Of a stretch of 64,000 nt of DNA, positions 13,858-45,830 are shown piece by piece. Under the pieces are notes generated by a model. The model had not been told where the DNA came from. It saw only the letters and a list, made by a program, of their open reading frames with translations, and did no database searches. Position 1 is the stretch's first letter; each line of letters starts with the position of its first letter. A program made the position numbers and the translations under genes. This DNA is from Flavobacteriales bacterium. Lineage in GTDB: Bacteria; Bacteroidota; Bacteroidia; Flavobacteriales_D; Sanyastnellaceae. The stretch covers positions 30,305 through 94,304 of the forward strand of contig CANEVR010000001.1 of assembly GCA_947442505.1 (NCBI GenBank), read 5' to 3'.

Positions 13858-16800
13858 TTACTCCTTGATGCATAAAACTGGGAAACCCATTCCCCTGGGG
13901 TAAGATTCCCGTATCATTTTATCCGTCCTCATTTCATATGCATATCCATTTAAACGACCTTCAGAAGAAGTCCACCAAGCGTGATTGGGCGAAATACTAA
14001 AAGTACCCGTTTCTTTTCTTCTAGATCCAAGATTCCAACCCTTTGAAGCCGCTAATTTTTCTTTAGCCACTTCTTCATCTCCAAAGAATGTGATAAGATT
14101 TGACCAGTCCTGAGCATCCGCTATTCGCCATCCATGTGGAGCCAATCCACGCTCGTCATTAACCGCATACCAATTGTATAACCTTCCTTCTTCTTTGCCA
14201 ATAGACTCATCATTCTTGTAGTAACACCATGCAGGTTGTCCTTCTTCGTTTGCCTTGACCCAATCCGATTTGTCTTTGGCATGAGGTATCAGGTCTCCAT
14301 TTCTAAAAACCGCATTATCTAAATTATCTTGAGCCCAAAAGACATCAGTCTGACCTTTCATTTTTTTCCCTAAAGGAATTTTAACGGTAGCCATGTTTTC
14401 CGGCTCCATGTCCAACTGACTCGGCGCTTTGCCTTTTGTGATTTTCTTCTTTTCGACCTCATTCACACTCTCCTTTGTGGGAACAGGCGGCTGGATATCT
14501 AATGAAATATTGGGGACATTTGGTCGATTAGCAATATTATTTAACTCACCATGTTGACTTTCTGAACCCGAGTTGGATTTTGGTGTCTCACTTTTTTTCA
14601 ATGGAGTCTCGCTTGCCTTAAGAATTTCCTTATTGAATTTAATGGTGTAGTGCTGAAAAACTTTAGGAACATTTGGAAGAGGGTTCCAAATCCTGAAGGA
14701 GGGCTCTTCAGTCCATTTATAATTGGATTTATAAAATGGTACCTTAAGTTCCCTTGAATTTAGTTTGCCTCCAGCTGAGCGTATTGTCGTGTTAATTTTA
14801 ACATCTTCTCTCTCCATATAATCCTTTATATCTCGTTTGGATTGCTTTAACTTGCTGTCCACCCAGTTTATTAAAACCTTCACATCTTCAGGACATTCAT
14901 CTTCAAGGTCTAGGGAAAGCTTAAATAAATCCTCATAAAATTCATTTACTCTGCCCAAAGCACCTTTTGCCATAGCGATATTATAACGTGCAATCAAAAC
15001 ATAATTTCTGAAATATTTTACTTTTTCCCAAAATTCAATTGCCAGAGGAAAATCCTCTGAATAAAAAGAAATCGCACCAAATAAAAAATTATGACGATCT
15101 TTATCCCAAATAATATTGGATTCTTCAAATAAAATTCTGTTAAACCTTTTGGTTTCGATAATCTTTTCCTCAATCCCATCAATTTCCCTTGAGATGACAT
15201 GTAGTAATAAAATATCTTCCAAATAAAAAATCTCATTCAAATGAGACAATAAAAAAATCTCTTGATTTTTAGATTGATGATCTACAATTCCCTTTTTGAA
15301 CTTATCCCTTCTCCCATTGAAATAAGCATACTCCTCACGAATACTGGACCGATAATCCCAAATCATATTTTCCGAATCACCTGAGCCCAACTTTTTCATC
15401 TTTAGAAAAATTAAATTCCGCCTTATAACTATTGCCTTAAAATCAGAAATTTCATCCATTAATATCAATGAGTTTATCCAATTCTCTTCGTTGTAATTAA
15501 GATGAACCCCTACAATTTCTGCAAACTCCACATTCTTCATTTCACCTATAATTTGAGTCAAACCAAACACATTTGAATTCTTATTCAATTGCGTTGAAAT
15601 CGTAGTAATAAAAAACTTGATTCGTCTAATTCCAACATTTTCAATTAGTAGTTCTTTAAACCTTAGCTTGAGAATATTCAAAGAATAATATGCAAATAAT
15701 ATTACCAAGAAGATTACGGACCCAATTGCAAAATAAATATCAAGCAGCAAAAAAACTCCCACAGAAACACTAAGAAAAGCTGAAAATGAAAGAAGCATCC
15801 TTAACTTTCTTTCCAAGTTGAATCTATTTATATCAAATAATTTTAACAGTTGCCAACCAATACCAAAATCTGGTGCCAAATAAAAATACTGTGGTAGAAA
15901 ACTAATAACCATCCTAAAAAACAAATTGTATTGCACCTTATCTTTTCTTTTCACAGCATCATGAAATAAAAAAACAATCGATTCGTAAACGACACCCACC
16001 AATATTTTAGCCTCTTCATTTGATAGAACCGAAAAATCGGAATTGCGCAATTCAATGATTCTGTTGTGAAAGAAAATGAGAGATTCACGATCCGATACAT
16101 TCTTCAGTTTAGCGCTTAACCCAGACCCAAAATCATAATCTGAAATTTGTTCATCTTTTTCAATTTGCAATTCTTTTTCTAATTTCCTTGCTACCAGCAT
16201 CTCCTCATACCACTGTTGAATACCAACTTTCTCATCTTCCATCATTTCTTCCAAAGCAGCAGTTTTACTTTTGAGGTAATTCAAATAAATGGGGTTGGCC
16301 ATTTTTTTCCAATCTTCATAAGGAAATCCTGATAAATCAGTAATATTATCAACCTCAATTGTCTGAGATTCCGAACTCAAATAATTTTGAAATACGCCTT
16401 TGTCTCCATTCCGTTGATTCCAAAATACCAAAGAGTAATTGAGTCCCATGTCATCCTCACTTCTGATTCCTAAGACAAATGGCATCAGGCATAATTCGCT
16501 ACCGTCCAAAGACCATTCTTCATTGTTATAGACTGAATCAGGTTTAATGACAATAAAGTGTTGATTTAAATTGGACAGACCTTTTGTATTGATAATTCTC
16601 GCAGCGCTTATCTCATTCGCGTCAGCCACAATCAAGCTTGTTTTCTTGTAAAACGGAGAATTAAGGATAATTTCAAAACAAGTTTTAATCTCTGAGATAT
16701 GATCCTTGTTCAATACAATGGAAGCATGTGCATCTTGATTACGAATCTTAATCAATTTTTGCAAATACTCCTGGGTTTGATCATAATTTTTAGCAAAATC

Positions 16801-17100
16801 AGTCCATAAAGAGTTTTCTTCCTGTGATTTCAGTATGATCCTATTGACCATAGTCGACATGGCATTACAAAAGCCCAATGACGGTGGCTTTTGATACATT
16901 TGAACCAATTGAACCCTCAGGTTCATAGGAATCTCACTTTTCAGCTCCTTTAGCAACCATCCAGTATGAAAAGCAGCATTGAACTTAACACAAGCCTCCA
17001 GTAAACCTTTAAACATATTTTTTTGTACATCTATACTTTTTGACCTTCGTAACTCTTGGAAAGCAGCATGGAAAGGATACTCTATTCTGATTTTACTCAT
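13858..17100 (-). CDS. 1080-aa protein: N-terminal HEPN-like module, central TM hairpin, helical region, C-terminal FISUMP domain
   Basis: The N-terminal module is paralogous to those of the two STAND genes (PPSLGFC ... IKIRNQDAHAS, with R120-x4-H125 at nt 16726..16743). Two adjacent TM helices lie near aa 435-480 (LLSFSAFLSVSVGVFLLLDIYFAIGSVIFLVILFAYY). The C-terminus has FWAQDNLDNAVFRNGD, PAWCYYKND, GRLYNWYAVNDERGLAPHGWRIADAQDW and GFPVLCIKE. No P-loop seen. Confidence 0.85.
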   Translation of the reverse strand: MSKIRIEYPFHAAFQELRRSKSIDVQKNMFKGLLEACVKFNAAFHTGWLLKELKSEIPMNLRVQLVQMYQKPPSLGFCNAMSTMVNRIILKSQEENSLWTDFAKNYDQTQEYLQKLIKIRNQDAHASIVLNKDHISEIKTCFEIILNSPFYKKTSLIVADANEISAARIINTKGLSNLNQHFIVIKPDSVYNNEEWSLDGSELCLMPFVLGIRSEDDMGLNYSLVFWNQRNGDKGVFQNYLSSESQTIEVDNITDLSGFPYEDWKKMANPIYLNYLKSKTAALEEMMEDEKVGIQQWYEEMLVARKLEKELQIEKDEQISDYDFGSGLSAKLKNVSDRESLIFFHNRIIELRNSDFSVLSNEEAKILVGVVYESIVFLFHDAVKRKDKVQYNLFFRMVISFLPQYFYLAPDFGIGWQLLKLFDINRFNLERKLRMLLSFSAFLSVSVGVFLLLDIYFAIGSVIFLVILFAYYSLNILKLRFKELLIENVGIRRIKFFITTISTQLNKNSNVFGLTQIIGEMKNVEFAEIVGVHLNYNEENWINSLILMDEISDFKAIVIRRNLIFLKMKKLGSGDSENMIWDYRSSIREEYAYFNGRRDKFKKGIVDHQSKNQEIFLLSHLNEIFYLEDILLLHVISREIDGIEEKIIETKRFNRILFEESNIIWDKDRHNFLFGAISFYSEDFPLAIEFWEKVKYFRNYVLIARYNIAMAKGALGRVNEFYEDLFKLSLDLEDECPEDVKVLINWVDSKLKQSKRDIKDYMEREDVKINTTIRSAGGKLNSRELKVPFYKSNYKWTEEPSFRIWNPLPNVPKVFQHYTIKFNKEILKASETPLKKSETPKSNSGSESQHGELNNIANRPNVPNISLDIQPPVPTKESVNEVEKKKITKGKAPSQLDMEPENMATVKIPLGKKMKGQTDVFWAQDNLDNAVFRNGDLIPHAKDKSDWVKANEEGQPAWCYYKNDESIGKEEGRLYNWYAVNDERGLAPHGWRIADAQDWSNLITFFGDEEVAKEKLAASKGWNLGSRRKETGTFSISPNHAWWTSSEGRLNGYAYEMRTDKMIRESYPRGMGFPVLCIKE

Positions 17101-17113
17101 GATATATTAATCT

Positions 17114-17121
17114 TACATTTG
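17114..17121 (+). promoter_or_regulatory. candidate Bacteroidota -7 promoter box (TAcaTTTG) for the 17182 gene
   Basis: Exact match to the TAnnTTTG consensus, 60 nt upstream of the ATG, in the 81-nt divergent intergenic region. Motif match only. Confidence 0.3.
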
Positions 17122-17181
17122 TAAATATAGTGAATCGAAAAAGATAAGATTCTCTATAAAACGAATACCCACATTTTAAAA

Positions 17182-20100
17182 ATGAGTTTCAAATGCACCA
17201 ACATTGAATGTACTGCACCGGAGAATAAAAAGGGCAGAGAATACCCTTCGGCCATGGAATGTCCATTTTGTGATGTTCCTTTGGTTGAATTTTCAAGTTT
17301 TAATGAGGTTGATTTACAACTTATCAATACACTCCCCTACATCATCGCCTATCCCCTTAAAAGAACGCTGGAAGAAAAACATCCCTGGACGAAAATCAAT
17401 TTGTTCAAGGATACGTTTTTGAATTACCTAAAATATCTGGGATTGCTGACTGCATCCGAATTCTTCAACAGCCCCTTCAAAGACAAACGCATGGTGGCCT
17501 TGTTTCAGCAATCATTGTCAGAGCCTTCCTTTGGAACATGGAACCAATACATTAGAGAAACTTTGGCATTCTTGAAAGAAAAAGAACACTCCTTCTTTAT
17601 TCCTGAATTGGCGGAGCACTATGAAAAAGTGGAGACAGGTAAGAAAAGAAAATTGTACAAAGGCGAAATTGAATTTATCGATGGCAATGGAGATGTCCAA
17701 ATCAAAAAACAAGAAGCTACCGCAATTGGAATGCTTATCAATTTCAGAAACCGTTATTTGGGACATGGATTGACTTTGGACGCAGACACGGCTGAAAAAC
17801 TGTGGGCAGAATATTCTCCTATGTTTTTTGAAATTCTCAGAGAGCTGAAGTTCACGCTAGATTATAAGATGTACAAGTATGAAAATGATGAGACGTTTCT
17901 CTTGCAATCTGCCCAAATCGTTCAAAAAGAAAACAACAGAAAAAGCAATCAAGTTTGGTTGGAAAGTCCTACGGGTGAGGTGATGGATATACTTCCCTTT
18001 TACGTCGTTCCGGGAGAGTTAACGATCCGAAAAGAAGATAAGGAGCAAATATTGGCTTATGAATCCTACACAGGGAAGTCCATCAAGTTCTTTAGTCCGG
18101 AAGGTACTGAGAAGCAAACCTCAGGAAGAATTCTCGAAAAACTGAATTTGCTTTTGCGCGACAAGCAGAAAGAAAAAGCCTATTCACCCGAAGAATTTAC
18201 CAAGGAAATTTTTCTTTCCCGAGTTGCCGAGGAGAACAAACTCATTCTCGATACGCTCATTGCAGAGAAGAAAGTCATTCCGGGAGTTTATGTCCACCGT
18301 GAAGACATGGAGATCAAACTCCGCGAATGGATTGGTGCTCGAGCAAACATTTTCGTTATTGCTTCAGAAGCTGGTAGCGGAAAAACCAATTTGTTGGTGG
18401 AAATACAGAAGCAATACGCGGAGCGTGAATTGCCGACATTACTCATTCGAGCCGGCCGAATGGAGAAAACAACCATTCATGCACAGTTGTGCTACCTGTT
18501 GAATATTGATGAACATTGTAATCTAAACCAATACCCTGCCATTGCCGGGACGCAAGAGGCACCCACCTTTGTCCTGATCGATGGACTAAACGAGGCACTC
18601 GAATCGGAAAAACTTTGGACCGAACTATTTGAAATCTCCAAACACTTTGAACCCGGTAGTTTGAAGTTTGTGATTACAAGTCGGGCGAACTCCAAGGTAG
18701 GTTTAAATCGTTATACATTCGATGCGAACGACAAGCATTTTATTTATGGTAAAAATAACCAGCGCGAAAATGACCTAGGCGACTATGCACACTGGCTAAC
18801 AACTCTCAATATGGCAGAAATAAAATCTGCCTGGGAAAACTATTCGCAAAATGAAAGAAACAAATACAAACCCTTATTCTTATTTGATGATCTTGCTGCA
18901 TTTGATCGCGCATTATACAACCAAATTAGTAACCCTTTAATATTGAGACTATTTCTAGAAACCTATCACAATAAATCTCTTCCGAAGAAAGGTAACAAAC
19001 AACTAAATATATGGGCTGACTGGCTTGCAAACTTTTCTGAGGATGAAATTATTTTTTTAAAGTATCTGTCTCAGGCCGTTTGGGATAAAGGAGTAAACGA
19101 ATTATTATTAGATGATTTACTTAGCAAAGCGAATCTTAAGCCATACTTAACCACCGATATTATAAACGCTCCATATCATCGCCTTAAAAACATTGGTTGG
19201 ATAACACGATTTACTAAAGAATTGAATGTTTATTTATCTTTTACAGTTGAAGGGGCACTGCTCTATATTATGGGGGCAATCTTGAAGGAACAACAATTAT
19301 ATACGGATATTGAAATCATTAAAAACACTCTCAAAAAAGGATCGAAAATTCAACAATCTGCTATTGAAGTTTTGTTAAGTCAACTTTCACTATTGAATGA
19401 CCTCAAAATTCCGCGTATTCTTACTGATGCAGGTCAAGAATATCAATACGCTTGTGTCAATCCTTTGATTTTGTATATACGAAATTATGGAGTGAAATCT
19501 TTTGTAGACTTTTTTTTCACTCCGTCAAACGTTAACTACTGGTATTCGGCTCTATTATTATCTAATACATTATCTGATCTAGAGGAAAAATTGTTGAGAA
19601 AGGAGTTTTTAATTCAATTAATGCCTTTAAATACTTTTGTTTCCAGACCCGAAATTGAGATAGGAATTAAAACTTGTGATTTGTTGGATTGGGAGCAAGC
19701 CCATAATTACGTAAGTATTATTGATAAAAATTGCAACTCAAATGATTTATCTACTGTCAAAGTTGAACTTGATTCGTTTTTATTGGTTGAGTTAGGTCAT
19801 CTTGAATTACATTATGGCAACTATGATCAAGCATTAAACTACTACAAAAAATCTCTTGAAATAGATGAAAATAAATTTGGCAAAAATATAGATATAGGTA
19901 CAACCTACTATTTTATTGGAACGGCCTATAGCGCAAAAAGCGAGTATATAAAAGCAATTGAATATTTCGAAAAAGCAATTAATACTTATCGAATTTTTCT
20001 AGACGAAAATCATATTTTCTTTTTTCGAATTTATAATGACCTTGGATTACTATTAGGCTCAATACAACAAAATAATAAGGCTCTATTAACACTCGAAAAA

Positions 20101-30849: not shown

Positions 30850-32031
30850 ATGACAGACCAAATTGAGGACACCTTTTTTGAAGACTACTTATCGTTCGAA
30901 AAATTTCCAAATTCATTGTACTACATTGCACCGGGGTTTGATTTTGAACCCCTGTGGAGAATGTCACATTTATGTGACACCTTCTTCTATGCAAATTTGT
31001 ATTACACTTTGGATAAAGTTCAAACCAGTATTTACAATCAACTTCAAAATTCTAAGAATGTCGAAATTGTTTCTTTGGAGATTGATGAGCGCTTTGATGA
31101 AACAACACATTTCGATCTTCATCCCAACTTCAGAAAACATTTCAAAGAAGCATCATCACTGCTCTCTCCAACTGAGCAAAGAGGCTATATCAACACTTTT
31201 GTGCCTGCATTGCATGAAAGTCAATGGATGATCACCGTTAAACTTAGAAGAAAGTCTACAGACCGCATAATAACTCTTTTCTACTTCACTGGTGAAGGTT
31301 TAGCTTCCTATGTTGCACTCAGTAAAAATGGAGCATCTGCACCCCGAGTAATTTGCACCATTCAGTCTGGAATTTTAGAAAGACCCAACGGATTAATGTC
31401 CCGCCTGCTCAACTCGTTCGAAAAAAAGCCTTTATTGTGGATAAGAGGTTTTGAAGAAACTTCTGACAAGTGGCTATACTCAGATGCTTTCAATGAAGAC
31501 AACTTGTACAATCATGTTGGACTCGACTTCATTCATGAATGGATTGTACCTGCATCTTACTTAGGTTTTTATGAGGATGCTCCCAGCAGAAGGTTTTGCA
31601 AAGGGTTTATTACCCAACAGACCTTTGATGAAAATCTTCAAATCCCTAAAGTGAATGTAAATAATCATGTTATCCATTTCAATGGTATTGAAAATATCCA
31701 ATGGCGCAACAACAATGATCATCGCTCTGCACTTTTTATTTTCAAGAATGTTTATGCCCCTTTTGAAACTATATTGGATAAGTGCGATGATGTCAGTTTC
31801 TGGGAAGAATGTTTATACCCATCATTTCGCAAAGACTCCTCTAAGGAATGCATCGATTTTTTGAGAAAAATTGATTCCCTCAACAAATACAAAGAAATTC
31901 ACTTCATTCCTTTCGGTATGGAGGATGAAGGGAAATTGTACCAAGACTTTTTCAATGAAAATCACAATGCGCAATTCCATATGTATCTGCATCGCCCCAT
32001 GGACTTTTATGACTTAAAGCCCGGTCAATAA
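30850..32031 (+). CDS. hypothetical protein, 393 aa, downstream partner of the GIY-YIG::YaaA-like gene
   Basis: The ORF starts 30 nt after the upstream stop on the same strand. No recognised motif. Confidence 0.65.
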   Translation: MTDQIEDTFFEDYLSFEKFPNSLYYIAPGFDFEPLWRMSHLCDTFFYANLYYTLDKVQTSIYNQLQNSKNVEIVSLEIDERFDETTHFDLHPNFRKHFKEASSLLSPTEQRGYINTFVPALHESQWMITVKLRRKSTDRIITLFYFTGEGLASYVALSKNGASAPRVICTIQSGILERPNGLMSRLLNSFEKKPLLWIRGFEETSDKWLYSDAFNEDNLYNHVGLDFIHEWIVPASYLGFYEDAPSRRFCKGFITQQTFDENLQIPKVNVNNHVIHFNGIENIQWRNNNDHRSALFIFKNVYAPFETILDKCDDVSFWEECLYPSFRKDSSKECIDFLRKIDSLNKYKEIHFIPFGMEDEGKLYQDFFNENHNAQFHMYLHRPMDFYDLKPGQ

Positions 32032-35757: not shown

Positions 35758-36102
35758 TTAGATAGCATAGTAAACCTTACAAGGTTTATTTCTTTTTCGA
35801 CAATAACGAATTCCGTTCGAAGTACCCTTGCAGAGTCCATCCCAAAAGGCGATGCACAAATCATAATTGTCAATGATCTCTTTGCTCCTCATTACTCCGG
35901 CACTTTTACCATAGGCAGCCCAATTGGGTTCAAAGATCAATGTTGGGATTGAATGAGCAATGGCCCACTCTTCTGCCATTTTGTCTGCCCCTCTGCACCC
36001 TCCAGAAATCAAAAATGTTATTTGAGGCAAATACTCAATAAGAACTTCACTCAACAGTCTTCGATTATCAAAATCTCGACTTTCTATTACAGCAATTTTC
36101 AT
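35758..36102 (-). CDS. SLOG-superfamily protein (DUF2493/YspA-like), 114 aa
   Basis: Motifs ISGGCRGADKMAEEWA, NWAAYGKSAGVMRSKEII and IAFWDGLCKGTSNGI match the DUF2493 pattern (GGARGAD ... W..yGk.AG..RN ... aFWDG.S.GT). Confidence 0.8.
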   Translation of the reverse strand: MKIAVIESRDFDNRRLLSEVLIEYLPQITFLISGGCRGADKMAEEWAIAHSIPTLIFEPNWAAYGKSAGVMRSKEIIDNYDLCIAFWDGLCKGTSNGIRYCRKRNKPCKVYYAI

Positions 36103-36225
36103 ACTATCTAGAATTACAAATTAAACTATAAATGAGCAAGGTCTTTTCAGGCCATAAACCATGAAGATGCTCACTTCTAAATACCCAAGAAAGGATTGAA
36201 AAGACACCGCAGAATTCATGAATCA

Positions 36226-36417
36226 TCACGGAATCAACATCAACAACAACACGTACACTAAAATGATAACAAAATAATAGTAAGTTGAATAGGACAATTG
36301 AATCACATACGACTCCATCTCCATCCAAAAGGTTTTTCCAAATACATCCCACCCCGCATACACAATAAACAAGCGGGCGAAAATGGTCCAAAACATCAAA
36401 GAGAGTAATCCATTCAT
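36226..36417 (-). CDS. small two-TM membrane protein, 63 aa, paralog of the 28324..28512 product
   Basis: See 28324..28512. I preferred this frame over the overlapping ORF 36104..36391 because only this one has a paralog. Confidence 0.5.
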   Translation of the reverse strand: MNGLLSLMFWTIFARLFIVYAGWDVFGKTFWMEMESYVIQLSYSTYYYFVIILVYVLLLMLIP

Positions 36418-36663
36418 TGTTTAGAAATTTTTAGGGTTAATAAAAAGTTACACTTCTATACAACACTACCAAACAATAAAAACGAAACGAAACATTTACA
36501 CAACTATTCTAATACGCAATCATGCATCCCTCTATTGCATTTCTGCTTTAAAATAACTTTTTCCTCTTTTTTCTAAAATATTTTATCTATTGCAACAAAA
36601 CTGCAAACAATTGGTTGTATATTTAAAATTCTCGCCAAGTAACCCCTTAAATAATATATATAT

Positions 36664-36930
36664 ATGATGAAAAAAATGGTGAAGTTAAGTTTTGGGAAGT
36701 GGAAGGTGGTAAAGTTTAGTGGTAGTTATTATGTGAATTTTTTTGTGGAGAAGGATTTGTTTGTGGTGATTGATGGTGAAAAGTATTTTAAGATTAAAAA
36801 AGGGAAGTTGAGAAGTTTGGGGATGAAGTATTTTGAAAAGAAAAAAGAGGAATCCTATGAAGGTGTTGAATCCTCCCCCGAACTCATCCGTCTCATCAAA
36901 CTTCTCGTCGAACTCAATCAGGCCGCTTAA
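36664..36930 (+). CDS. questionable 88-aa ORF; its first ~63 codons lie in a cytosine-free tract
   Basis: An ORF exists, but the composition is bizarre: no C in 36647..36853, so no Pro, His, Gln, Thr or Ala are encoded there. It could equally be non-coding. Confidence 0.3.
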   Translation: MMKKMVKLSFGKWKVVKFSGSYYVNFFVEKDLFVVIDGEKYFKIKKGKLRSLGMKYFEKKKEESYEGVESSPELIRLIKLLVELNQAA

Positions 36931-36963
36931 TCCATCCCCATACCGTTCTGGTATTCCTGATTA

Positions 36964-37075
36964 TTGAGTAAAGAGTATTGAGTATTCAGTAACGAGTAAC
37001 GAGTAACGAGTAACGAGTAACGAGTATCCAGTATCCAGTATCCAGTATCCAGTATCCAGTATCCAGTAATGAGTA
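36964..37075. repeat. 16 tandem heptamers NNNAGTA (ttg, aag, ttg, ttc, acg x5, tcc x6, atg)
   Basis: Counted directly: 16 x 7 = 112 nt with an invariant AGTA core. There are two internally perfect sub-arrays, (ACGAGTA)5 and (TCCAGTA)6. Confidence 0.95.
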
Positions 37076-37105
37076 CTATCTACTCTCTACTGTGAGCTGT
37101 GAACT

Positions 37106-37217
37106 CATTCCTTCATTCCTTCATTCCTTCATTCCTTCATTCCTTCATTCCTTCATTCCTTCATTCCTTCATTCCTTCATTCCTTCATTCCTGCATCCCT
37201 TCATCCCTTCATCCCTT
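37106..37217. repeat. 14 tandem octamers (CATTCCTT x10, CATTCCTG x1, CATCCCTT x3)
   Basis: Counted directly: 14 x 8 = 112 nt, ending 30 nt before the NADAR start codon. The + strand is G-free across 37102..37192. Confidence 0.95.
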
Positions 37218-37246
37218 TAAGTATAACCCCTAAATACACAAACTTT

Positions 37247-37720
37247 ATGGCAAACATCTCTTTTACAAAAGTCAACCTCCCTTACGGTTGGTTGGGAAAC
37301 ATGGCTCCTTCCACCATCACTTGGAACGGAAAAACCTGGAGAACATGTGAAGCAGTTTTTCAAGCAATGAGATTCTCTAACCCAGAAATCCAAGAAATCA
37401 TTCGGTTGGAAAAAAGTCCCATGTCTTGTAAGATGAAATCAAAAAAGTACAAATCTGAAATGACAGTGGAACCCATGTCCAAACAGGATGTTCAAAACAT
37501 GAAAACCTGTCTCCTTCTCAAATTCACTCAAAACCCGGTTCTACTTCAAAAACTTCTTTTAACCAAAAATCATGTTCTAATTGAAGACATTGGATCAAGG
37601 AAAGGTGAACGTCACCTCTTTTGGGGAATGAGAAACAAAGGAGGTCTGTGGGAAGGAAAGAACATTTTGGGAAAACTTTTGATGGAAGTACGTGAGGAAC
37701 TAAAACATAACGTCTCATAA
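37247..37720 (+). CDS. NADAR (DUF1768/YbiA-like) domain protein
   Basis: Aligns by eye along its whole length with E. coli YbiA: GWLGNMAPSTITWNGKTWRTCEAVFQAMRF vs GDFSNFAAWPIKVDGKTWPTSEHYFQAQKF; SPMSCKM vs SPMVAARM; WEGKNILGKLLMEVREEL vs GKGKNRLGYLLMELREQL. Confidence 0.85.
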   Translation: MANISFTKVNLPYGWLGNMAPSTITWNGKTWRTCEAVFQAMRFSNPEIQEIIRLEKSPMSCKMKSKKYKSEMTVEPMSKQDVQNMKTCLLLKFTQNPVLLQKLLLTKNHVLIEDIGSRKGERHLFWGMRNKGGLWEGKNILGKLLMEVREELKHNVS

Positions 37721-37802
37721 CCCTTGAAGGTCAAAAAGACCTTCCCAACATCTATTTATCTTTTTAAAAAAAATTACCCATCATTTAATAAAAACAAACA
37801 CC

Positions 37803-38924
37803 ATGAAAATCTTTGAAAACTTGTCCGAAGCAAAATCCTTCATCGCGTCATTCATTCATGATCAAAAATGGACCACACAAATCAATAACTACAGTTATCG
37901 TCAATACTACAGAACTCGTATTTATCCCGAAAAACCCTTATTGAACTATTTCAACAAAGTCAGTATCACTCCATCTTCATATACCTTCTCCCGAATTTTT
38001 GATCGTGTCCCTAGGGAAAACCACAATTCCATTATTACTGCCTTTCACGATGGAGACATCGAATATGAGAAAATGGACCTGATCACTGAAGACATCTACT
38101 ATGAAATCACTCAACCACAACCCACCAGTGCCTCTCAATGGTTCACCATCTTCGAATCCTTTTTCTCCTCTTCCTACCTATCAAATAACAACATCCACCC
38201 AAACACCCTCGACCAACTTCTCAATCAAGAAAAAGAAGAAAAAGTCATGAGATGGGAAGAAATCCGACACGACCTCCGAATCATTCTTTCGTTCTCCCTG
38301 TATGATCATGAAGTTCAAATATCATTCTGTGACATGGACAAAAGAAATGACCAATTTGTCCGAACCAATTGGAATCCCGTCACCGCATACTATGAAGGTA
38401 AATTCTTATATCGTCCCAAGTTCTTTGACCGTTTTTGTAATCGACACGATGTCGCATTCATGGAATGGCAAGGTTATCCTCAACATCCTTTGGCCAACCT
38501 GAACGAACAAGTGTTCAACATCCAGTTCAATGAATACAGTGAAGGTCAATGGGATCGCATCTTTTCAAGAAGTCGTTCCAATCTTAAAAAGGAATTAATC
38601 AATGTACTCTCCCACATTCATTTGACCATTGGAAAAGACATCCTGGGGAATTTTACCAATGACTTGAAAACATTATCCCTTCAAGCCCCTACTCCAGAAG
38701 AACAAAAAGACGCCAAAGTCAAAAAAATGTACGGAGACCGATTGTACTTCTATACACCAGAAAACGACATCTTCATCTACTACGGTCCCATCATCACCAG
38801 AGACTATAATGGAACCCAATTTCTTATTTACACCTTGCGCATTCGTGTTGTTCCATTTGACAACCAAAAGTGGGATGAGCGCCATTGCTACGCTCATCCC
38901 TTGGTTTATGAAATGGACAAATAA
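37803..38924 (+). CDS. hypothetical protein, 373 aa, downstream of the NADAR gene
   Basis: Long ORF 82 nt after the NADAR stop on the same strand. No recognised motif. Confidence 0.65.
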   Translation: MKIFENLSEAKSFIASFIHDQKWTTQINNYSYRQYYRTRIYPEKPLLNYFNKVSITPSSYTFSRIFDRVPRENHNSIITAFHDGDIEYEKMDLITEDIYYEITQPQPTSASQWFTIFESFFSSSYLSNNNIHPNTLDQLLNQEKEEKVMRWEEIRHDLRIILSFSLYDHEVQISFCDMDKRNDQFVRTNWNPVTAYYEGKFLYRPKFFDRFCNRHDVAFMEWQGYPQHPLANLNEQVFNIQFNEYSEGQWDRIFSRSRSNLKKELINVLSHIHLTIGKDILGNFTNDLKTLSLQAPTPEEQKDAKVKKMYGDRLYFYTPENDIFIYYGPIITRDYNGTQFLIYTLRIRVVPFDNQKWDERHCYAHPLVYEMDK

Positions 38925-38931
38925 ATCCAAA

Positions 38932-39900
38932 TTACTTCCCAATCGATTGAGCCAGGCGAGAGGACAAGTCCCGAATGTCCTCCACCCTGGCCAATTGTTT
39001 TAGCCAATGTTGGGGTATCTCATCTTCCCCGTAAGCAATACCGGCCAAACCACCCACCACAGCTCCCGTGGTATCCGAATCTTCGCCCAGATTCACTGCT
39101 TTTAGGACCGCTTCTTCAAATGATTGGGTATGCAACAGACACCAAATGGCCGCTTCCAAGGTATCAATGACGTATCCACTGCTCGAAATCGTTTCTATTC
39201 CTCTCTTCCACAAATCACCTGACAATATCCCGGAGAAGTGAATCAACTCCGATGGATCGAGCAACGACTCGCGCTCAATCAAAGACTGGATAGATCCGTT
39301 GGTCTCAGCATAAGCATCATCCACCCGCATGCCTCTCAACATCCGAACGGCCAACTCAATGAAATAAATGCAAGCAAAGATGGATCGTGGATGGCGATGG
39401 GTGATGGAGGATACTTGCCTCACGATTTCCATTCTGTCCTTTCTGTCCATATCAATGGTAAAGAAGGCCAACGGTAAAATGCGCATCAATGACCCATTGC
39501 CATTGCTCATCTCATCTGCCCCTCCTGCCAACGCTGGAGAAACGCCGGCCTCGATATTCTGCAATGCTTTTCTTGTTGCTATCCCAATGTCAAAGACATC
39601 GCCATCTGCGGACCAATACGCTCTGCGGTACCATTGAACAAAACGATTCGAGATATCGTTCAAATCAAAACCACTGATCAACGACTCTGCCAAGCAAAAG
39701 GTCAAGGACGAATCATCCGACCATGTTCCTGGAGGCAAATCATAGGTTCCATACCCCGTCATGTCGCGGACAGGTGACTCCAAAAGGGAGGATCTTGAAC
39801 GAAATTCAAAGGGAACGCCCAAAGCATCTCCAATGGCCACCCCCAAAAGGGCAGATTGCACTTGGTGATTCCAATCACCAGCTGTTTTGTTATTTATCAT
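38932..39900 (-). CDS. ADP-ribosylglycohydrolase (ARH/DraG family)
   Basis: N-terminal LGVAIGDALGVPFEF and C-terminal GEDSDTTGAVVGGLAGIAYG..IP..W are the family's metal-site signatures. Confidence 0.9.
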   Translation of the reverse strand: MINNKTAGDWNHQVQSALLGVAIGDALGVPFEFRSRSSLLESPVRDMTGYGTYDLPPGTWSDDSSLTFCLAESLISGFDLNDISNRFVQWYRRAYWSADGDVFDIGIATRKALQNIEAGVSPALAGGADEMSNGNGSLMRILPLAFFTIDMDRKDRMEIVRQVSSITHRHPRSIFACIYFIELAVRMLRGMRVDDAYAETNGSIQSLIERESLLDPSELIHFSGILSGDLWKRGIETISSSGYVIDTLEAAIWCLLHTQSFEEAVLKAVNLGEDSDTTGAVVGGLAGIAYGEDEIPQHWLKQLARVEDIRDLSSRLAQSIGK

Positions 39901-39928
39901 TGTTAATCATTTACTTATCATTCATTCA

Positions 39929-41596
39929 TCAAAACCCAATCCCCCTCCTACTCACCGTTGTACTATAACTCAACTCTTGTTGACACAATTGACTGAGGCA
40001 ATCCATGCGGTTGATGCGGGGATGAGTGATGGTTTCAAGGACAAACTTCCTGCGGATGTTCATCAATTGACCGCCAGTCAAAGAAAACTGCTGCGCCAAA
40101 GTCTTGACCTCAGGTCGTTTCATGTCGGTCTTAAAGGCACTCCACATCATTCTTTCCTGCGTCGCGGTATCGGGATGACCGATTTCTACCTTCCACAAAA
40201 AGCGTCGCTCAAATGCTTGATCCATGTTTTTGTTCAAATTGGTAGTGGCAACCAAAATACCCTTGAAATTCTCCATCTCTTGCAGGAAAATATTCTGCAT
40301 GGCATTCATCGCCATATCCACGGACCGCTCAACATCCAGTCGCTTTGATATCAAGGCATCGGCTTCATTGAAAAGCAATATGGGCATCCGCTCTTGACCT
40401 TCAGCCCATTTGTAATACTCGTCAAAAATCTTTTTGGCATTGCGCTCTGTATCCCCCAAGTACTTCCCTCGGATTTGACTGATGTCCACCATGAAAACAG
40501 ATCGTTTATTCTTCCGCGCCCATTGCATCACACTGGCTGTTTTGCCTGTACCAGGCTGACCATACAATAAAATGGTAACTCCCTTACCCAATTTTCTTTT
40601 GCTCAATGCTTGAGTCACGCGCTGATACGAAGATTGGCTGAGCAACTTACCCAAGGAATTCAACTGCTGTTCTTCTGCGGCATTAAAAAACAAGATCTCG
40701 TCTGTAATCGTATCCCAACTCAACTTCCTTCCCACAGAACTGCGTCCCTCTCCTTCTTGAGCTGCAGGCGGTGTCTCCCATACGATTTCCGGATAAAAAA
40801 CCCTCATCGCCAAAGGTGTTGCCTTGTACTCTTCGTCAATAAATGGATCAATGCTTGTCCCCAATTTCACCAACGATTGACTAATCAAAACAGCCTCGTC
40901 TTTGTTCAATCGTTGTTTCCAAATACAACGATCCGAATCGGTATCCGACAATGTATCACAAATGGCCTCTAACGGAAGACCGGACTGCGTGCGCATCTGC
41001 TGGTCGACCAAAACCATCAACGCCACAGCATTGCCAATTTCCAACTTCCAATCGTCTTTTATTTTACGCACAAATCCCACCTTGGGATGGGCCTGCATCC
41101 AATCCTCCACATTTTGCTCGACTTTGCGTGCAGTAAGGACCTTGTTCTTGGCCGCCTGCATCCAGGTATTGAACTTCAAGAAGAATTGATGGGTTTCATT
41201 CTTTCCATCGGTCTCCACTTCTTGATTGAACAACCGTTGTAAAAAAGCCGAAGATGCAGCAACGCTATCAAACTGCACCCCATTTTTCCTTTTGGAGGTG
41301 ATGAATCCATCTTGCGTCCACTGATACCACAATGGGTGAATCCATTCCCAATCCCTTATACCCCATTGATAAGTATCCAAAACTCCCATGGAGGACTCCT
41401 CACCCGATCGCAATGTTTTCAAAACAATGCCGGCCAAAAGCAAGGCCTCACGGTCACTGGATAATCCCAATTCACTTTTGAACGATTCAAATTCAGGATG
41501 ATCGTCAAACGACTCATTTAAGAATTTGGTCATCAATTCAAGTCCTGGATATAAGTCCATTTTTTCAAATAAAGGAAGGAAGTTTGTTTTGGGCAT
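39929..41596 (-). CDS. AAA+ ATPase (classical AAA clade) with an unrecognised ~330-aa N-terminal region
   Basis: Walker A LLYGQPGTGKT, Walker B ILLFNEADAL, sensor-1 region VATTNL and the second region of homology DQAFERRF. It ends 28 nt upstream of the ARH gene on the same strand. Confidence 0.85.
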   Translation of the reverse strand: MPKTNFLPLFEKMDLYPGLELMTKFLNESFDDHPEFESFKSELGLSSDREALLLAGIVLKTLRSGEESSMGVLDTYQWGIRDWEWIHPLWYQWTQDGFITSKRKNGVQFDSVAASSAFLQRLFNQEVETDGKNETHQFFLKFNTWMQAAKNKVLTARKVEQNVEDWMQAHPKVGFVRKIKDDWKLEIGNAVALMVLVDQQMRTQSGLPLEAICDTLSDTDSDRCIWKQRLNKDEAVLISQSLVKLGTSIDPFIDEEYKATPLAMRVFYPEIVWETPPAAQEGEGRSSVGRKLSWDTITDEILFFNAAEEQQLNSLGKLLSQSSYQRVTQALSKRKLGKGVTILLYGQPGTGKTASVMQWARKNKRSVFMVDISQIRGKYLGDTERNAKKIFDEYYKWAEGQERMPILLFNEADALISKRLDVERSVDMAMNAMQNIFLQEMENFKGILVATTNLNKNMDQAFERRFLWKVEIGHPDTATQERMMWSAFKTDMKRPEVKTLAQQFSLTGGQLMNIRRKFVLETITHPRINRMDCLSQLCQQELSYSTTVSRRGIGF

Positions 41597-41905
41597 ATGG
41601 GTTATTGTTTGTGATAAATAAAATTCAACACTTTGCGATATTGTTGCAATTTTTAAATATTGTTCAAAACGTTATGATATTTTCTGAATCGACACCATCA
41701 GCTTGACTTAATCATGCTGGCAGGAAAAATCACTTCCTTGCCAACCGACACATCTTTATCTGTGTGATATTCAGAAACAATCTGACAAACGAAAACTTCT
41801 GCGATTTATTGGGAAAGAAAAAAAATAATCCAAATCCCAGAAATGATCACAGATTGCAACAATATCGCAAATCTGTTTCGCAACTTTGCATTCAAATCTT
41901 AATCT

Positions 41906-42151
41906 ATGGCTTTTATCTCTCTCCTCTTTGTTGTTGTTTTTATCATTGTCACGATGGCCTGGGGCGTTTCGCTTTGGATGCGAATTGATGAGAATTTTCC
42001 CTTTCAAGATTTCCCCCTGCGACATGTGTTACTAAAAATTTTCATGATTTGCATTTTCTTTCCAGCCTTGATTTTATTGGCTTTGGTCTTGATTTCATCC
42101 TTGGCTGATAAAAAAACACTTGACAAAAATTTCGATTTATATTATATTTAA
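41906..42151 (+). CDS. possible small membrane protein, 81 aa
   Basis: Two clear hydrophobic helices. No other support. Confidence 0.3.
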   Translation: MAFISLLFVVVFIIVTMAWGVSLWMRIDENFPFQDFPLRHVLLKIFMICIFFPALILLALVLISSLADKKTLDKNFDLYYI

Positions 42152-42529: not shown

Positions 42530-42832
42530 ATGAAAAAAACAAGAATCAACTTTTTCTCCATGCAAGTACCTCCGGTGAATGCCGTATTCAAAAAACAATT
42601 CGATGAAATGATGCAGCAAATTCCGGATGGACCTGGATGCTGCGTGGTCATTGGATACTGCGGAACGGAATCTAAAATCATTGATTTGATCAAAACATCT
42701 GATCGCCTGCGCAAAGCCATCAAGGGAGGAACTAAACTTTGGGGAGAGACGAAAATCAGTCGCTACCGATGGATTCAAGAACAAGTGAAACAAAATCAAT
42801 ACGACAGCATTAAAATTCAAATCATCGACTAA
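42530..42832 (+). CDS. hypothetical protein, 100 aa
   Basis: The ORF ends 5 nt before the next same-strand gene. No motif recognised. Confidence 0.5.
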   Translation: MKKTRINFFSMQVPPVNAVFKKQFDEMMQQIPDGPGCCVVIGYCGTESKIIDLIKTSDRLRKAIKGGTKLWGETKISRYRWIQEQVKQNQYDSIKIQIID

Positions 42833-42837
42833 TTCCT

Positions 42838-43872
42838 ATGCAAGAACAAATCATCATCTTTATAAAATCTCCCCTACAGTCCATTTGGTATGCGGAGATC
42901 CCCAATTACCCTGGCGCCCATGACGATTTAGAAATGGTTGACTCAGCGGGTACTTTCTTGTCGCAATTGGACAAAGGACTGGGTATCGTACAAGTCAAAA
43001 TCAGCGATGAGCCCGATGATATGGTCGATGTCATCTTGGAGAAAACAGAAGAGACCAAGGACGAAAAAGGAGCCCACTACAATATCGCTTCTGGCTACCA
43101 ACACGTGGATTCTATTTGGCTATGTGGAGTTTTGGAATATGTATTCGGAACATTCCCTAACCACCTTTATTTGGAAATACTCCCCATACAGGAATGCAGA
43201 GACATCACTGAGGAGGCCTTTTTCAAAGCGGGTCGCCATTACCAATTGGATGAGAACAGAGTGAACAGAGAATGGAATTTGTTGTCCCGAACCAATAAGT
43301 GGCGGTTCTGGCATTTCTTAGCTTTATGGGCAGATTACGCCAATGAGCGGAAAATGGGTTGGATGCCAGGGGATAGACAAATGTTTCAATTCGAAAGTTT
43401 TAGATATTTCATGCCAGAGAATAAACTCAAGAACTGCCTGACTTTCCCTGAGCTATATATTTCTACCACCAAAAACTTTCCTTATCAATTCCCCATTGTT
43501 ATCAACCATGAAAATATCCAAGAACTAAAAGCGTTCATTCAGGATTATTTCAAAAACGAGGTACCTTTTGTTGAAGTCTATTCCTATCTCGATGTGGCTT
43601 GGAGCAAATTGGAAGTTCAAGAGGCAGATGTATATATTGAAGATGTCATGGAAAAGGCCTTTAACATAACGCAGTGGGATTACAACGAGATTGATTTGTG
43701 GCGAAGGGTTGTTGGCAAAAAAGACAAATGGTCCAAGGCACTGCTGTATGGCAATTTGAATATGCATCAAAAGGAACAAATGGAAGAATTGGAAAACACC
43801 ATTCACCAAACACCCCCTAGCATCAATGAGAAAGTGTGGTGGGAGTTGCATGAAAAAATGAAAAAACAATAA
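42838..43872 (+). CDS. hypothetical protein, 344 aa
   Basis: Long ORF, tightly spaced between the 100-aa ORF and the DUF2779 gene. No motif recognised. Confidence 0.65.
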   Translation: MQEQIIIFIKSPLQSIWYAEIPNYPGAHDDLEMVDSAGTFLSQLDKGLGIVQVKISDEPDDMVDVILEKTEETKDEKGAHYNIASGYQHVDSIWLCGVLEYVFGTFPNHLYLEILPIQECRDITEEAFFKAGRHYQLDENRVNREWNLLSRTNKWRFWHFLALWADYANERKMGWMPGDRQMFQFESFRYFMPENKLKNCLTFPELYISTTKNFPYQFPIVINHENIQELKAFIQDYFKNEVPFVEVYSYLDVAWSKLEVQEADVYIEDVMEKAFNITQWDYNEIDLWRRVVGKKDKWSKALLYGNLNMHQKEQMEELENTIHQTPPSINEKVWWELHEKMKKQ

Positions 43873-43892
43873 GAACAAACAAAAAAAACAAT

Positions 43893-45830
43893 ATGAACAA
43901 CTTGAACAAAAAATTCTATTACGACGATTTCAGTCGAAAGTATCCCATGAGCAGTCTGATTGTCAACAGCAAGTCTAAAATGCTGACCAAATCCAAATTC
44001 AAATTGGGTTTGGAATGCACAGGTAAGCTGTTTTACTCGTTGGATAAACAATACAACAATGTTCAAATGGACGACAGCTTCATGAAATCACTGGCAGAAG
44101 GCGGATTTCAAGTTGAAGAATATGCGCGTCAGCATTACCCTGGAGGCATCTTCATTGAAGCCGATCATCACGAGTATGCTTTTGCCCATGAAGACACGAT
44201 GCAACTACTGAGAAAAAGAGAGCATGTTGTTCTCTTTGAGGCAGGATTCAAGTTTGAGCATCTTTTTATTCGTGCAGACATCGTTGTTAAAAAAGGCAAC
44301 CACATTCAATTGTTGGAAGTAAAGGCCAAGTCTTATGATGAACACAATACCAAGAAGGCCATCTTAAAAGACAATGGCCAATTGAGCTCTGAATGGAAAC
44401 CCTACTTGTTTGATCTTGCCTTTCAGACCTATGTGATGCAACAATGTTTACCCGGCTATACCATCGAGTCATTCTTGATTTTGGCGGATAAGAATAAGGT
44501 GGCAAAGGTTGATGGCTTAAACCAAAACTATCGTGTCACACAATCACCTGATGTTCCAAGACACATTGCGGTGATGGATGCCTCGCCGGTAGATTGGCAA
44601 GATTCTATCCTTATCCGCTTGGATCAAACCGAGGTGGTTCGCCGCATCTTGAACAATGAAGAAGATTACAGACCGGGATATTCCTTTCACCAGGCCTTGG
44701 CGGAGATGATTCCCATTGTCAGAGATCGCATTTACCCCAACCATCAGGTCAAACAAAGTACTTGCAAGAAATGTGAATTCAGGAAAAAGGACTTCAGTGA
44801 TGCTGGTGTATCGGGTATGGAGCGTTGTTTTAAAGAACAAAGAGGTATAAATCCTGAAGCATTGTATGAACCCAACTTGTTGGATGTTTGGGATTTGAGA
44901 AATAGTCAATTGTTCGATGCTGGTCATTTCGCCTTGTCCGAAATCACCGAAGATCTATGGGCCAAAGAGGAAAAAGAAGATCATTTCTCGCACTCCCACC
45001 GGCAATGGGTTCAGATAGCCGCAACGCAGACGGCACCTGCCACCCATGTTTTGGCTGCCCCTCTGCGCGAAGAGATGAAAACATGGCAGTTCCCTTTGCA
45101 CTTCATCGATTTTGAGACCACTCGATCAGCGCTGCCCTTTTATGCAGGCAGAAAACCATACGAGCAGATTGCTTTTCAATATTCACATCACATCATGCAA
45201 TCCGATGGCAGCGTGGTACATCAAGGGCAATCATTGGTGGCCAATGGGAGCTTTCCCAACTTTGCCTTCATTCGCCAGTTACGCGATAGTCTGCAACAGG
45301 ACAAAGGCAGCGTCATGACTTATTCCCAACACGAGAACACCGTGGTAAAGGAAATCAAAGAACAACTGCTTCGTTCACAAGAAGCGGATCGCGATGAATT
45401 GATCGCCTTTATTGACGAATTGATGGAGGGACGCTTGGTGGATTTGCTGAAGGTGGTGAAAAAATACTATTATCATCCATACATGAAAGGTTCCAATTCC
45501 ATCAAAGATGTATTGCCCACCATCCTCCGAACCAGTGCGCCTTTGCAAGCCAAGTATGGACAAACCATCGAACAAATCGGATTGAGCAGTTTGAATTTTG
45601 ACTCAACGCACACCTGGTTGCCTGCAGGGGTTACCAATCCATACAAAACACTCACCCATATTCAAGATGGCGGAGCTGCCATGATAGCCTACGCCCGATT
45701 GATGTACACTGACATCAGTGATGAAGATCGGAATGAAAACCAAAAGTCGTTGCTGCAATACTGCGAGTTGGACACCTTGGCGATGGTGATGCTGTATGAA
45801 CATTTAAGAGAACTTACAGGAGAAGAATGA
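43893..45830 (+). CDS. DUF2779 family protein (N-terminal PD-(D/E)xK nuclease-like core plus C-terminal RNase-H-like/exonuclease-like region)
   Basis: Family signatures: LTKSKFKLGLECTGKLFY near the N-terminus, IRADIVVKKGNHIQLLEVKAKS (D ... ExK), HFIDFETTRSALPFYAGRKPYEQIAFQYSHH and YCELDTLAMVMLYEHL. The true start may be an internal Met. Confidence 0.8.
   Translation: MNNLNKKFYYDDFSRKYPMSSLIVNSKSKMLTKSKFKLGLECTGKLFYSLDKQYNNVQMDDSFMKSLAEGGFQVEEYARQHYPGGIFIEADHHEYAFAHEDTMQLLRKREHVVLFEAGFKFEHLFIRADIVVKKGNHIQLLEVKAKSYDEHNTKKAILKDNGQLSSEWKPYLFDLAFQTYVMQQCLPGYTIESFLILADKNKVAKVDGLNQNYRVTQSPDVPRHIAVMDASPVDWQDSILIRLDQTEVVRRILNNEEDYRPGYSFHQALAEMIPIVRDRIYPNHQVKQSTCKKCEFRKKDFSDAGVSGMERCFKEQRGINPEALYEPNLLDVWDLRNSQLFDAGHFALSEITEDLWAKEEKEDHFSHSHRQWVQIAATQTAPATHVLAAPLREEMKTWQFPLHFIDFETTRSALPFYAGRKPYEQIAFQYSHHIMQSDGSVVHQGQSLVANGSFPNFAFIRQLRDSLQQDKGSVMTYSQHENTVVKEIKEQLLRSQEADRDELIAFIDELMEGRLVDLLKVVKKYYYHPYMKGSNSIKDVLPTILRTSAPLQAKYGQTIEQIGLSSLNFDSTHTWLPAGVTNPYKTLTHIQDGGAAMIAYARLMYTDISDEDRNENQKSLLQYCELDTLAMVMLYEHLRELTGEE

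Follow-up and report, generated by a model that had tools for sequence, protein, structure and literature searches.

The stretch of DNA analysed here, referred to throughout as the window, comprises 64,000 nucleotides (nt) from a Flavobacteriales bacterium of the Bacteroidota (GenBank assembly GCA_947442505.1, contig CANEVR010000001.1, positions 30,305 to 94,304). The subject of the analysis is an interval of this window in which genes for two different ADP-ribose-removing folds, a NADAR-domain protein and an ADP-ribosylglycohydrolase (ARH), lie in two convergent pairs, the first with the gene for a 373-residue protein of a rare family (unk373) and the second with that for an AAA+ ATPase. With a confidence that is about evenly balanced, the interval is taken to be the place where two independent modules meet tail to tail within a variable island. 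The ARH and NADAR genes are best read as adjacent through collection by the same island, not as parts of one machine, and the two modules as 'eraser' cassettes that lack an ADP-ribose-adding enzyme of their own. The genes and sites that bear on this reading are as follows.

35758 to 36102, minus strand: YAcAr, SLOG family (PF10686, E 3.8e-13), where the recently shared block begins on the left
36664 to 36930, plus strand: small88, a small basic protein that accompanies the 373-residue family; homologues 58% identical
37247 to 37720, plus strand: NADAR-domain protein, 157 amino acids (aa) (PF08719), a predicted N-glycosidic de-ADP-ribosylase
37803 to 38924, plus strand: unk373, 373 aa, a rare uncharacterised family with no Pfam, PADLOC or PDB match
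38932 to 39900, minus strand: ADP-ribosyl hydrolase of ARH/DraG/Tri1 type, 322 aa (PF03747), second gene of the AAA+ operon
39929 to 41596, minus strand: AAA+ ATPase, 555 aa (PF00004), made up of a fast-diverging head (to about residue 300), a single classic AAA module and G-I-G-F at the C-terminus
41650 to 41989, no strand: site of a WYL regulator gene in relatives, absent from the window; corresponds to L004 13947-15148 (blastn)
42530 to 45830, plus strand: p100, DUF6717 (344 aa) and DUF2779 (645 aa), a divergent operon (PF20475, 8.9e-19; PF11074, 1.8e-27)

The open reading frames (ORFs) for NADAR, unk373, ARH and the AAA+ protein are intact at these coordinates, as the initial annotation had placed them, and its three domain calls all lie above the Pfam cut-offs: NADAR with E 1.2e-22 and 81.4 bits against 35.1 (profile positions 2-163 of 163), ARH with E 1.8e-80 and 271.2 bits against 26.2 (ADP_ribosyl_GH), and the AAA+ module with E 8.4e-21 and 75.2 bits against 21.2 (residues 342-472 of 555). 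On the minus strand 28 nt separate the AAA+ stop codon from the ARH start, which confirms the operon-like spacing described there; unk373 and ARH are convergent with 7 nt between their stops, and 82 nt lie between NADAR and unk373. The genome is 2.64 Mb long and 96.7% complete, and in it ARH and NADAR are each single-copy and lie 1.2 kb apart. The chance of finding them within 3 kb of each other is about 0.2% on a uniform null, although accessory genes cluster in islands and the real null is weaker than this. The variable or defence island around them, in a Bacteroidota chromosome, begins at about 13.8 kb in the window and ends at about 49.7 kb, and the genes among which they lie are of STAND/HEPN, GIY-YIG, Fic, DUF2779 and WYL type, not those of metabolic operons.

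Two blocks with different histories

Conservation of the four-gene arrangement is a local affair: the related metagenome contigs L004-L009 and L060 carry all four genes, and distant loci do not have the arrangement. Comparison of the window with L004 by blastn gives 87% identity over 35764-38923 and 66-72% from ARH onwards, with the break at the unk373 stop codon. Synonymous divergence (dS) from L004 is 0.09 for YAcAr, 0.45 for small88, 0.29 for NADAR and 0.45 for unk373, as against 2.1 for ARH and 2.8 for the AAA+ head, and is saturated for the AAA module, DUF6717 and DUF2779; identity at four-fold sites is 0.61-0.89 in the left block and 0.35-0.48 in the right. From the break in both blastn identity and dS it follows that sharing of the left block between the lineages is much more recent than that of the right, with the breakpoint between the convergent stops. 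The proposal that the four genes form one ADP-ribose-processing cluster is not supported by these comparisons, in which the halves differ in dS and, among distant relatives, occur apart.

The p100-DUF6717-DUF2779 operon lies with ARH and the AAA+ gene in one slowly shared block. Amino-acid identity to L004 is 94% for YAcAr, 80% for DUF6717, 72% for the AAA module, 53% for ARH and 42% for the AAA+ head, the last two being far more diverged than DUF6717 over the same split, and ARH evolves fast in the window lineage. In the ARH tree the window and L004 sequences both sit on long branches that do not resolve a sister relation. The order AAA+ then ARH, with a spacing of 3-57 nt, persists across the dS-saturated split within the lineage. 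The AAA+/ARH operon singled out in the initial annotation is real, and it is confined to the window lineage, in which ARH and AAA+ together look like an insertion between unk373 and the p100/DUF6717 genes. In L004, L005, L006 and L060 the gene for a WYL regulator (350 aa; PADLOC WYL model, 3.5e-25) is divergent from the AAA+ gene.

NADAR and the unk373 family

The NADAR protein aligns over its full length with E. coli YbiA (PDB 2b3w, E 1e-13), its sole PDB sequence match, and in this alignment retains C-E35-A-V-F-Q, S57-P-M, G-E121-R-H-L-F-W-G and G-K-N-x-L-G-x-L-L-M-E-x-R, E121 being probably the catalytic Glu described in PMC12945103. Loss of catalytic residues, which would have spoken against an ADP-ribose-processing role, is found neither here nor in ARH, as judged by alignment with YbiA and with Lmo0067 and Tri1, respectively. 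The best NCBIfam match of NADAR is the DS-32B model NF053876 (E 1.7e-29), with a score of 102.2 bits that is far below the 240-bit cut-off, and TIGR02464 scores 60.7 bits with a cut-off of 73.7. NADAR genes are found at E<=1e-8 in 9/400 sampled Bacteroidota genomes (about 2%), and these nine loci, which hold more distant copies, have no small88, unk373 or AAA+ clade neighbour. ARH lies within 9 kb of NADAR in one of the nine (L076, G271:C61), where a NADAR gene 30% identical to that of the window (8852-9415) and an ARH gene 45% identical (16563-17507) are 7 kb apart.

Pfam and PADLOC contain no family that unk373 matches, and NCBIfam and PHROGs yield no significant match for it; the unk373 family is absent from the 400 sampled Bacteroidota genomes, and phmmer over 1.84 billion representatives recovered 21 members of 357-402 aa and two fragments. 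Their alignment (A2) combines an N-terminal half that varies with a C-terminal domain, about 225 aa long, that is conserved, and holds R150, E221, G224, N234, S257, P351, H365, Y369 and K373 invariant, K373 as the very last residue, a pattern of conservation that suggests an enzyme. Against PDB sequences A2 gave nothing better than E 0.18, a Pfam scan of 20 family members gave scattered single matches, all at E>0.01, and AlphaFold2 models from 4 and then 8 sequences reached a mean pLDDT (predicted local distance difference test) of 36 and 40, with no fold assignable. Word-based homologue searches with unk373 or with the AAA+ head returned near-identical proteins only; further unk373 loci numbered none in viral contigs or phage records and one in two scans of genome contigs. 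Inspection of A2 led to the rejection of phosphoribosyltransferase (PRTase), R-S-E and H-Y-E readings of unk373, the order of residues being wrong (R...E...S) and the phosphoribosyl pyrophosphate (PRPP) loop missing. A 393-aa protein elsewhere in the window (30850-32031) was compared with unk373 as a possible paralogue and is not one.

The distant homologues of unk373 (loci L062-L065, L077 and L078) place the family in a recurrent company. In L062 the unk373 homologue (30% identical) is accompanied by NADAR (57%), YAcAr (60%), small88 (58%), DUF4407 and WYL genes; small88 stands directly upstream of the unk373 homologue, which is followed by a p100-like and then a DUF6717-like gene, and NADAR lies 3.5 kb from the unk373 homologue on the opposite strand. 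L065/L078, from a marine Flavobacteriales metagenome-assembled genome, hold NADAR (48%), a 106-aa gene, unk373 (26%) and two WYL genes, and L063/L077 hold small88, a 166-aa gene and the unk373 homologue in that order. ARH and AAA+ genes are found in none of L062, L065/L078 and L063/L077. The NADAR subfamily thus stands beside the unk373 family in 3/3 lineages with enough flank, and NADAR subfamily, small88, WYL and unk373 family are linked across deep divergence with varying gene order. The pairing of NADAR with the 373-aa protein, which the initial annotation had taken from adjacency in one genome, is borne out by this recurrence in L062 and L065/L078. Gene order in the distant loci also suggests an ancestral operon small88-unk373-p100-DUF6717 that would have been interrupted by the ARH/AAA+ pair in the window lineage.

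Two smaller observations concern this group of genes. The p100-like and DUF6717-like genes directly follow the unk373 homologue in more than one distant locus (L062 8208-9557; L064 461-946; compare window 42530-43872). The small88 gene of the window (36664-36930) has a cytosine-free stretch that is not retained in its 58%-identical homologues (L062 6699-6956; L063 80-337), which have 15-17 C per 258 nt, the first at nt 59, and are C-poor, not C-free.

The AAA+ clade and its ARH neighbour

The AAA module has a Walker A motif G346..G-K352-T (G-P-G-T-G-K352-T), sensor-1 N453 and R464/R465, all invariant in its clade, and a Walker B motif that reads N410-E411, not D-E, with the Asp-to-Asn change in all 11 clade sequences (residues 403-415 of the window protein). 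The clade comprises proteins of 535-610 aa, occurs in 9/401 Bacteroidota genomes including the present one, and is represented by 11 full-length loci, two of them in this genome. Within 0-13 residues of the C-terminus its members carry a conserved [IM]-G-[FY] motif (residues 552-555 of the window protein), which recalls the IGF loop of ClpX or HbYX-type docking tails; the genome has one unlinked ClpP gene, on contig C51. The heads are homologous yet very diverged, and their alignment (A8) gave nothing better than E 0.18 against PDB sequences. Because no polar residue of the head is invariant in the 11 homologues it is unlikely to be catalytic, and the suggestion that this region (330 aa as first delimited, about 300 here) is a divergent transferase accordingly loses its footing, the head being unlikely to be an enzyme at all. 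The best match of the AAA module in the defence catalogues is IetA (PADLOC 1e-23; NCBIfam 1.6e-24, 86.8 bits with a cut-off of 510).

What stands beside the AAA+ gene differs from genome to genome. WYL genes are neighbours in five loci of the clade (L004, L047, L051, L052 and C61); DUF2779 is immediately downstream in two (C61 of the same genome, and L048/G015:C37) and 2.3 kb away in the window; elsewhere the neighbours are genes for small proteins without an assigned function (L050, L052) or housekeeping genes (L044-47, L049). The window DUF2779 protein (645 aa) joins a Cas4-like PD-(D/E)xK domain to DUF2779, a family found in 67/401 genomes. No clade locus beyond the window lineage has ARH, NADAR or unk373; PADLOC models run on the variable genes downstream of the other clade members gave no matches. 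On contig C61 (L003 2491-8680, minus strand) the gene for a paralogous AAA+ protein (582 aa; AAA module 37% identical) is the first of an operon in the order AAA+, DUF2779 (709 aa, 34% identical to the window copy), NIF/HAD phosphatase, an uncharacterised 284-aa protein and WYL, which looks like the same cassette type without ARH. In L050 (G005:C28, 12095-15712) the AAA+ clade member is followed by a B12-binding radical SAM protein and a fusion of Cas_NE0113 (CARF-like) with adenosine deaminase.

The ARH protein aligns with Listeria Lmo0067 (PDB 8za7) at E 1.4e-83 and with Tri1 (6dre) at E 3e-46, and the columns of the metal site are retained throughout (G24-D-A-L-G, S61-D62-D63-S, F-D104-I-G and E273-D274-S-D276-T277). 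The Tri1 model NF041672 scores 216.3 bits with a cut-off of 490 and the DraG model TIGR02662 152.7 bits with a cut-off of 337, both below, and the alignment begins at Tri1 residue 68-72, which leaves the protein without a Tri1-type N-terminal extension. Homologues at about 55% identity number more than 7,900, and in five sampled contexts they are solo genes without AAA+ or ADP-ribosyltransferase (ART) neighbours.

The absence of a recognisable ART, as first reported, holds over the ground covered here. Among the ORFs scanned at 29-55 kb of the window Pfam finds no ART, Sir2, TIR or macro match, with no Sir2 search made genome-wide; models for DarT (PF14487), ADPrib_exo_Tox, PARP and ART find nothing in the whole genome, a weak negative in that control genomes were silent for 3/4 of these models, DarT among them. 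Profile searches of unk373 and the AAA+ head for ART, Sir2, TIR or macro folds, as proposed in the initial annotation, gave no signal with the profiles of Pfam, NCBIfam, PADLOC or PDB.

A proposed pair of eraser modules and the alternatives

On the plus strand small88, NADAR and unk373, with YAcAr beside them, would make up a NADAR-partner module, in which NADAR would hydrolyse ADP-ribose from nucleic-acid bases (G or C) and unk373 would be its functional partner, either an activity held in check by NADAR, as in DarT-DarG or the partner-swapped DS-32, or a co-effector. The closest template for this half is the group of NADAR partner-swap modules to which DarTG and DS-32 belong, DS-32 being a validated anti-phage combination of NADAR with a phosphoribosyltransferase, a non-ART partner (DefensePredictor; bioRxiv 10.1101/2025.01.08.631726). 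As in DarT-DarG1, with its NADAR-type DarG, and in DS-32, a small stand-alone NADAR lies beside a conserved partner, here only presumed to be an enzyme. Unlike DS-32, unk373 has no PRTase match and no PRPP-loop motif, and NADAR is under the equivalog cut-off; unlike DarTG, no DarT (PF14487) match is found in the neighbouring ORFs or the genome, the genome-wide negative being weak; and unlike both, a small basic protein and WYL regulators accompany NADAR and unk373, and their coupling is loose. With a partner so rare and enzyme-like, this NADAR would extend the 'partner-swapping' of DarTG and DS-32.

The minus-strand pair of AAA+ and ARH genes would be a lineage-specific form of a WYL-associated AAA+ cassette whose downstream slot differs by genome, being taken by a DUF2779 nuclease, by small proteins or by nothing, and here by a Tri1/DraG-like ADP-ribosyl-protein hydrolase. 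In this module, we infer, the variable head of the ATPase would bind target proteins, the AAA+ ring would remodel them, and ARH would strip the ADP-ribose placed by a foreign transferase, whether of a phage or of a contact-dependent toxin; in the relatives a divergent WYL regulator would keep the operon inducible. The closest published template is that of the 'ARG-centric' anti-ADP-ribosylation systems, a computational prediction (Iyer, Burroughs, Anantharaman and Aravind, 2022; Viruses 14:1977; PMC9503650), in which ARG occurs without ART and is accompanied by a WYL or Nudix regulator, a chaperone, and optionally NADAR and restriction endonuclease (REase) nucleases, with rapid evolution and module accretion and loss; a Nudix- or WYL-HTH regulator is present in >42% of the systems and a coupled phosphatase in about 55%, the chaperones are of vWA, SseB or TY type, and the phyla named do not include Bacteroidota (PMC9503650). 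Such writer-less erasers are predicted to be a host answer to ADP-ribosyltransferases of phages and toxins. The comparison covers gene content and mode of evolution, and the systems themselves are predictions.

Several features are shared with that description: ARH without a coupled transferase in the searches of island and genome; a gene for a protein-handling partner; NADAR and a PD-(D/E)xK nuclease nearby; and sequences that evolve rapidly, with modules gained and lost even where genomes are close. On the regulator the picture is divided, WYL being divergent from the operon in relatives (L004/L005/L006/L060) and gone from the window. The AAA+ clade, by contrast, mostly occurs without ARH. 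The locus agrees with ARG-centric systems in logic and departs from their usual set of parts, and the logic of the module would be that of these systems with an ATP-driven unfoldase in place of passive chaperones. Of the initial annotation's two alternatives, immunity against incoming ADP-ribosylation is the better for the ARH half and agrees with the published prediction, while the mechanism by which it would act belongs to the conditional scheme set out above. This would be a second case, beside that of NADAR, of an eraser with an unusual partner, ARH having entered the position that varies in a WYL-associated AAA+ cassette, and the locus offers the two as compact, experimentally tractable cases in one place.

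Other systems resemble the minus-strand genes in part. The Serratia Tre1-Tri1 pair, a type VI secretion system ART toxin and its ARH immunity protein, and Listeria Lmo0067 share the ARH core and all metal-site motifs; unlike in Tre1-Tri1, no cognate toxin gene was found here, the ARH has no N-terminal extension and its gene is downstream of an AAA+ gene. In IetAS (Gao_Iet), which consists of the AAA+ protein IetA and the subtilase IetS, the likeness is that of the AAA module to IetA, and the differences are a score under the cut-off and the absence of an adjacent IetS protease. DarHTG, which consists of DarT, a helicase and the ARH-like DarG3 (PMC13069673), likewise places an ARH-fold eraser beside an ATP-dependent motor in a defence system, but has a DarT that is not found here and a UvrD-type helicase in place of an AAA+ protein.

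A number of points weigh against the reading as two eraser modules. The window is without the WYL gene of its relatives, having 41650-41989 in place of about 1.2 kb, and the AAA+/ARH and p100-DUF6717-DUF2779 operons may be unregulated in this strain. The Asp-to-Asn change in Walker B leaves ATPase turnover in question. The order AAA+ then ARH is seen in one lineage only and could reflect a neutral insertion of ARH behind the ATPase gene. As for the published template, an AAA+ protein with a novel head takes the chaperone position, where no vWA, SseB or TY protein is found; the locus has no phosphatase or ARPP, a NIF/HAD phosphatase being present only at the ARH-less C61; and Bacteroidota are not among the published phyla. 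On the plus strand, the spacing of NADAR and unk373 in L062 is looser than that of a classical toxin-antitoxin pair, and the role of unk373 as a partner enzyme is deduced from linkage and residue conservation. The neighbour surveys, lastly, took in 400 Bacteroidota genomes and a handful of metagenome contigs.

A possible, if on balance unlikely, alternative is that NADAR and ARH are orphan erasers, each a stand-alone immunity against foreign ADP-ribosylating toxins or phage transferases, with unk373 and the AAA+ protein as unrelated cargo. In Tre1-Tri1 the hydrolase core alone can protect broadly, and the window ARH, whose alignment starts from Tri1 residue 72, would be such a core without the extension. 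Its close homologues are solo in the five contexts sampled, and ARH follows no AAA+ gene in the clade loci outside the window lineage. PARG-type erasers, moreover, serve as immunity to an RNA-targeting ART toxin (PMC11833690). The cargo view accords poorly with the association of the NADAR subfamily with the very rare unk373 family in every lineage with enough flank, with the scarcity of NADAR, present in only about 2% of sampled genomes, and with an AAA+ and ARH order and tight spacing that outlast a dS-saturated divergence.

It is less probable that one of the two uncharacterised proteins is a hidden writer, a divergent ADP-ribosyltransferase or NAD-using toxin to which the erasers would be antitoxins in the manner of DarTG or DarHTG. 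The many invariant polar residues in the conserved C-terminal domain of unk373, together with its link to NADAR, are in keeping with this, and DarTG systems are known whose antitoxins are of NADAR type or ARH-like and to which an ATPase has been added (PMC13069673). The profile searches, however, found no ART, Sir2, TIR or macro signal in either protein, the conserved residues of unk373 are in neither the R-S-E nor the H-Y-E order, no polar residue of the AAA+ head is invariant, and NADAR and unk373 are not translationally coupled, with an 82-nt gap in the window and 3.5 kb on opposite strands in L062. If unk373 were an activity held in check by NADAR, this alternative would overlap with the reading of the plus-strand genes as a NADAR-partner module.

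That all four genes, with WYL and DUF2779, make one extended ARG-centric system, to which NADAR and unk373 were accreted as accessory modules, is more doubtful again. The published template admits NADAR, REase-type nucleases, WYL and module accretion, the genome's sole ARH and sole NADAR lie close together, and the arrangement is retained in the L004/L060 lineage. Yet dS differs at least four-fold between the halves across a sharp break, the unk373/NADAR loci of other lineages are without ARH or AAA+, the AAA+ clade loci are without NADAR, unk373 and ARH, and just 1/9 of the other NADAR loci has ARH within 9 kb. Similar chemistry side by side in an island need not amount to one system, which matters wherever defence candidates are called from gene neighbourhoods. 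A bolder extension of the two-module reading, to be entertained as a long shot, is that unk373 represents a new enzyme family of non-ART fold that would write an N-glycosidic mark of ADP-ribose type on nucleic-acid bases, with NADAR as its dedicated eraser and small88 and a WYL sensor completing a hitherto undescribed, reversible base-modification defence module. Independently of this, AAA+ and ARH would on the same bold view act together on ADP-ribosylated proteins as the first 'unfold-and-erase' machine driven by ATP, with the conserved I-G-F tail as a possible dock for ClpP. A housekeeping role, in which NADAR would cleave riboflavin intermediates as an N-glycosidase like YbiA, ARH would regulate metabolism like DraG and the island location would be incidental, is very improbable, for although YbiA is the only PDB match of NADAR and TIGR02464 comes near its cut-off, the scores are under the curated thresholds, the neighbours are STAND/HEPN, GIY-YIG, Fic, DUF2779 and WYL-type genes in place of metabolic operons, about 98% of sampled Bacteroidota are without NADAR, and ARH is fast-evolving in this lineage.

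Around the interval, the genes near the end of the island at 49.7 kb are Fic and AAA_14/DUF4143, followed by 3-hydroxyacyl-CoA dehydrogenase, and Por_Secre_tail proteins encoded in the flanks mark a Bacteroidota host.

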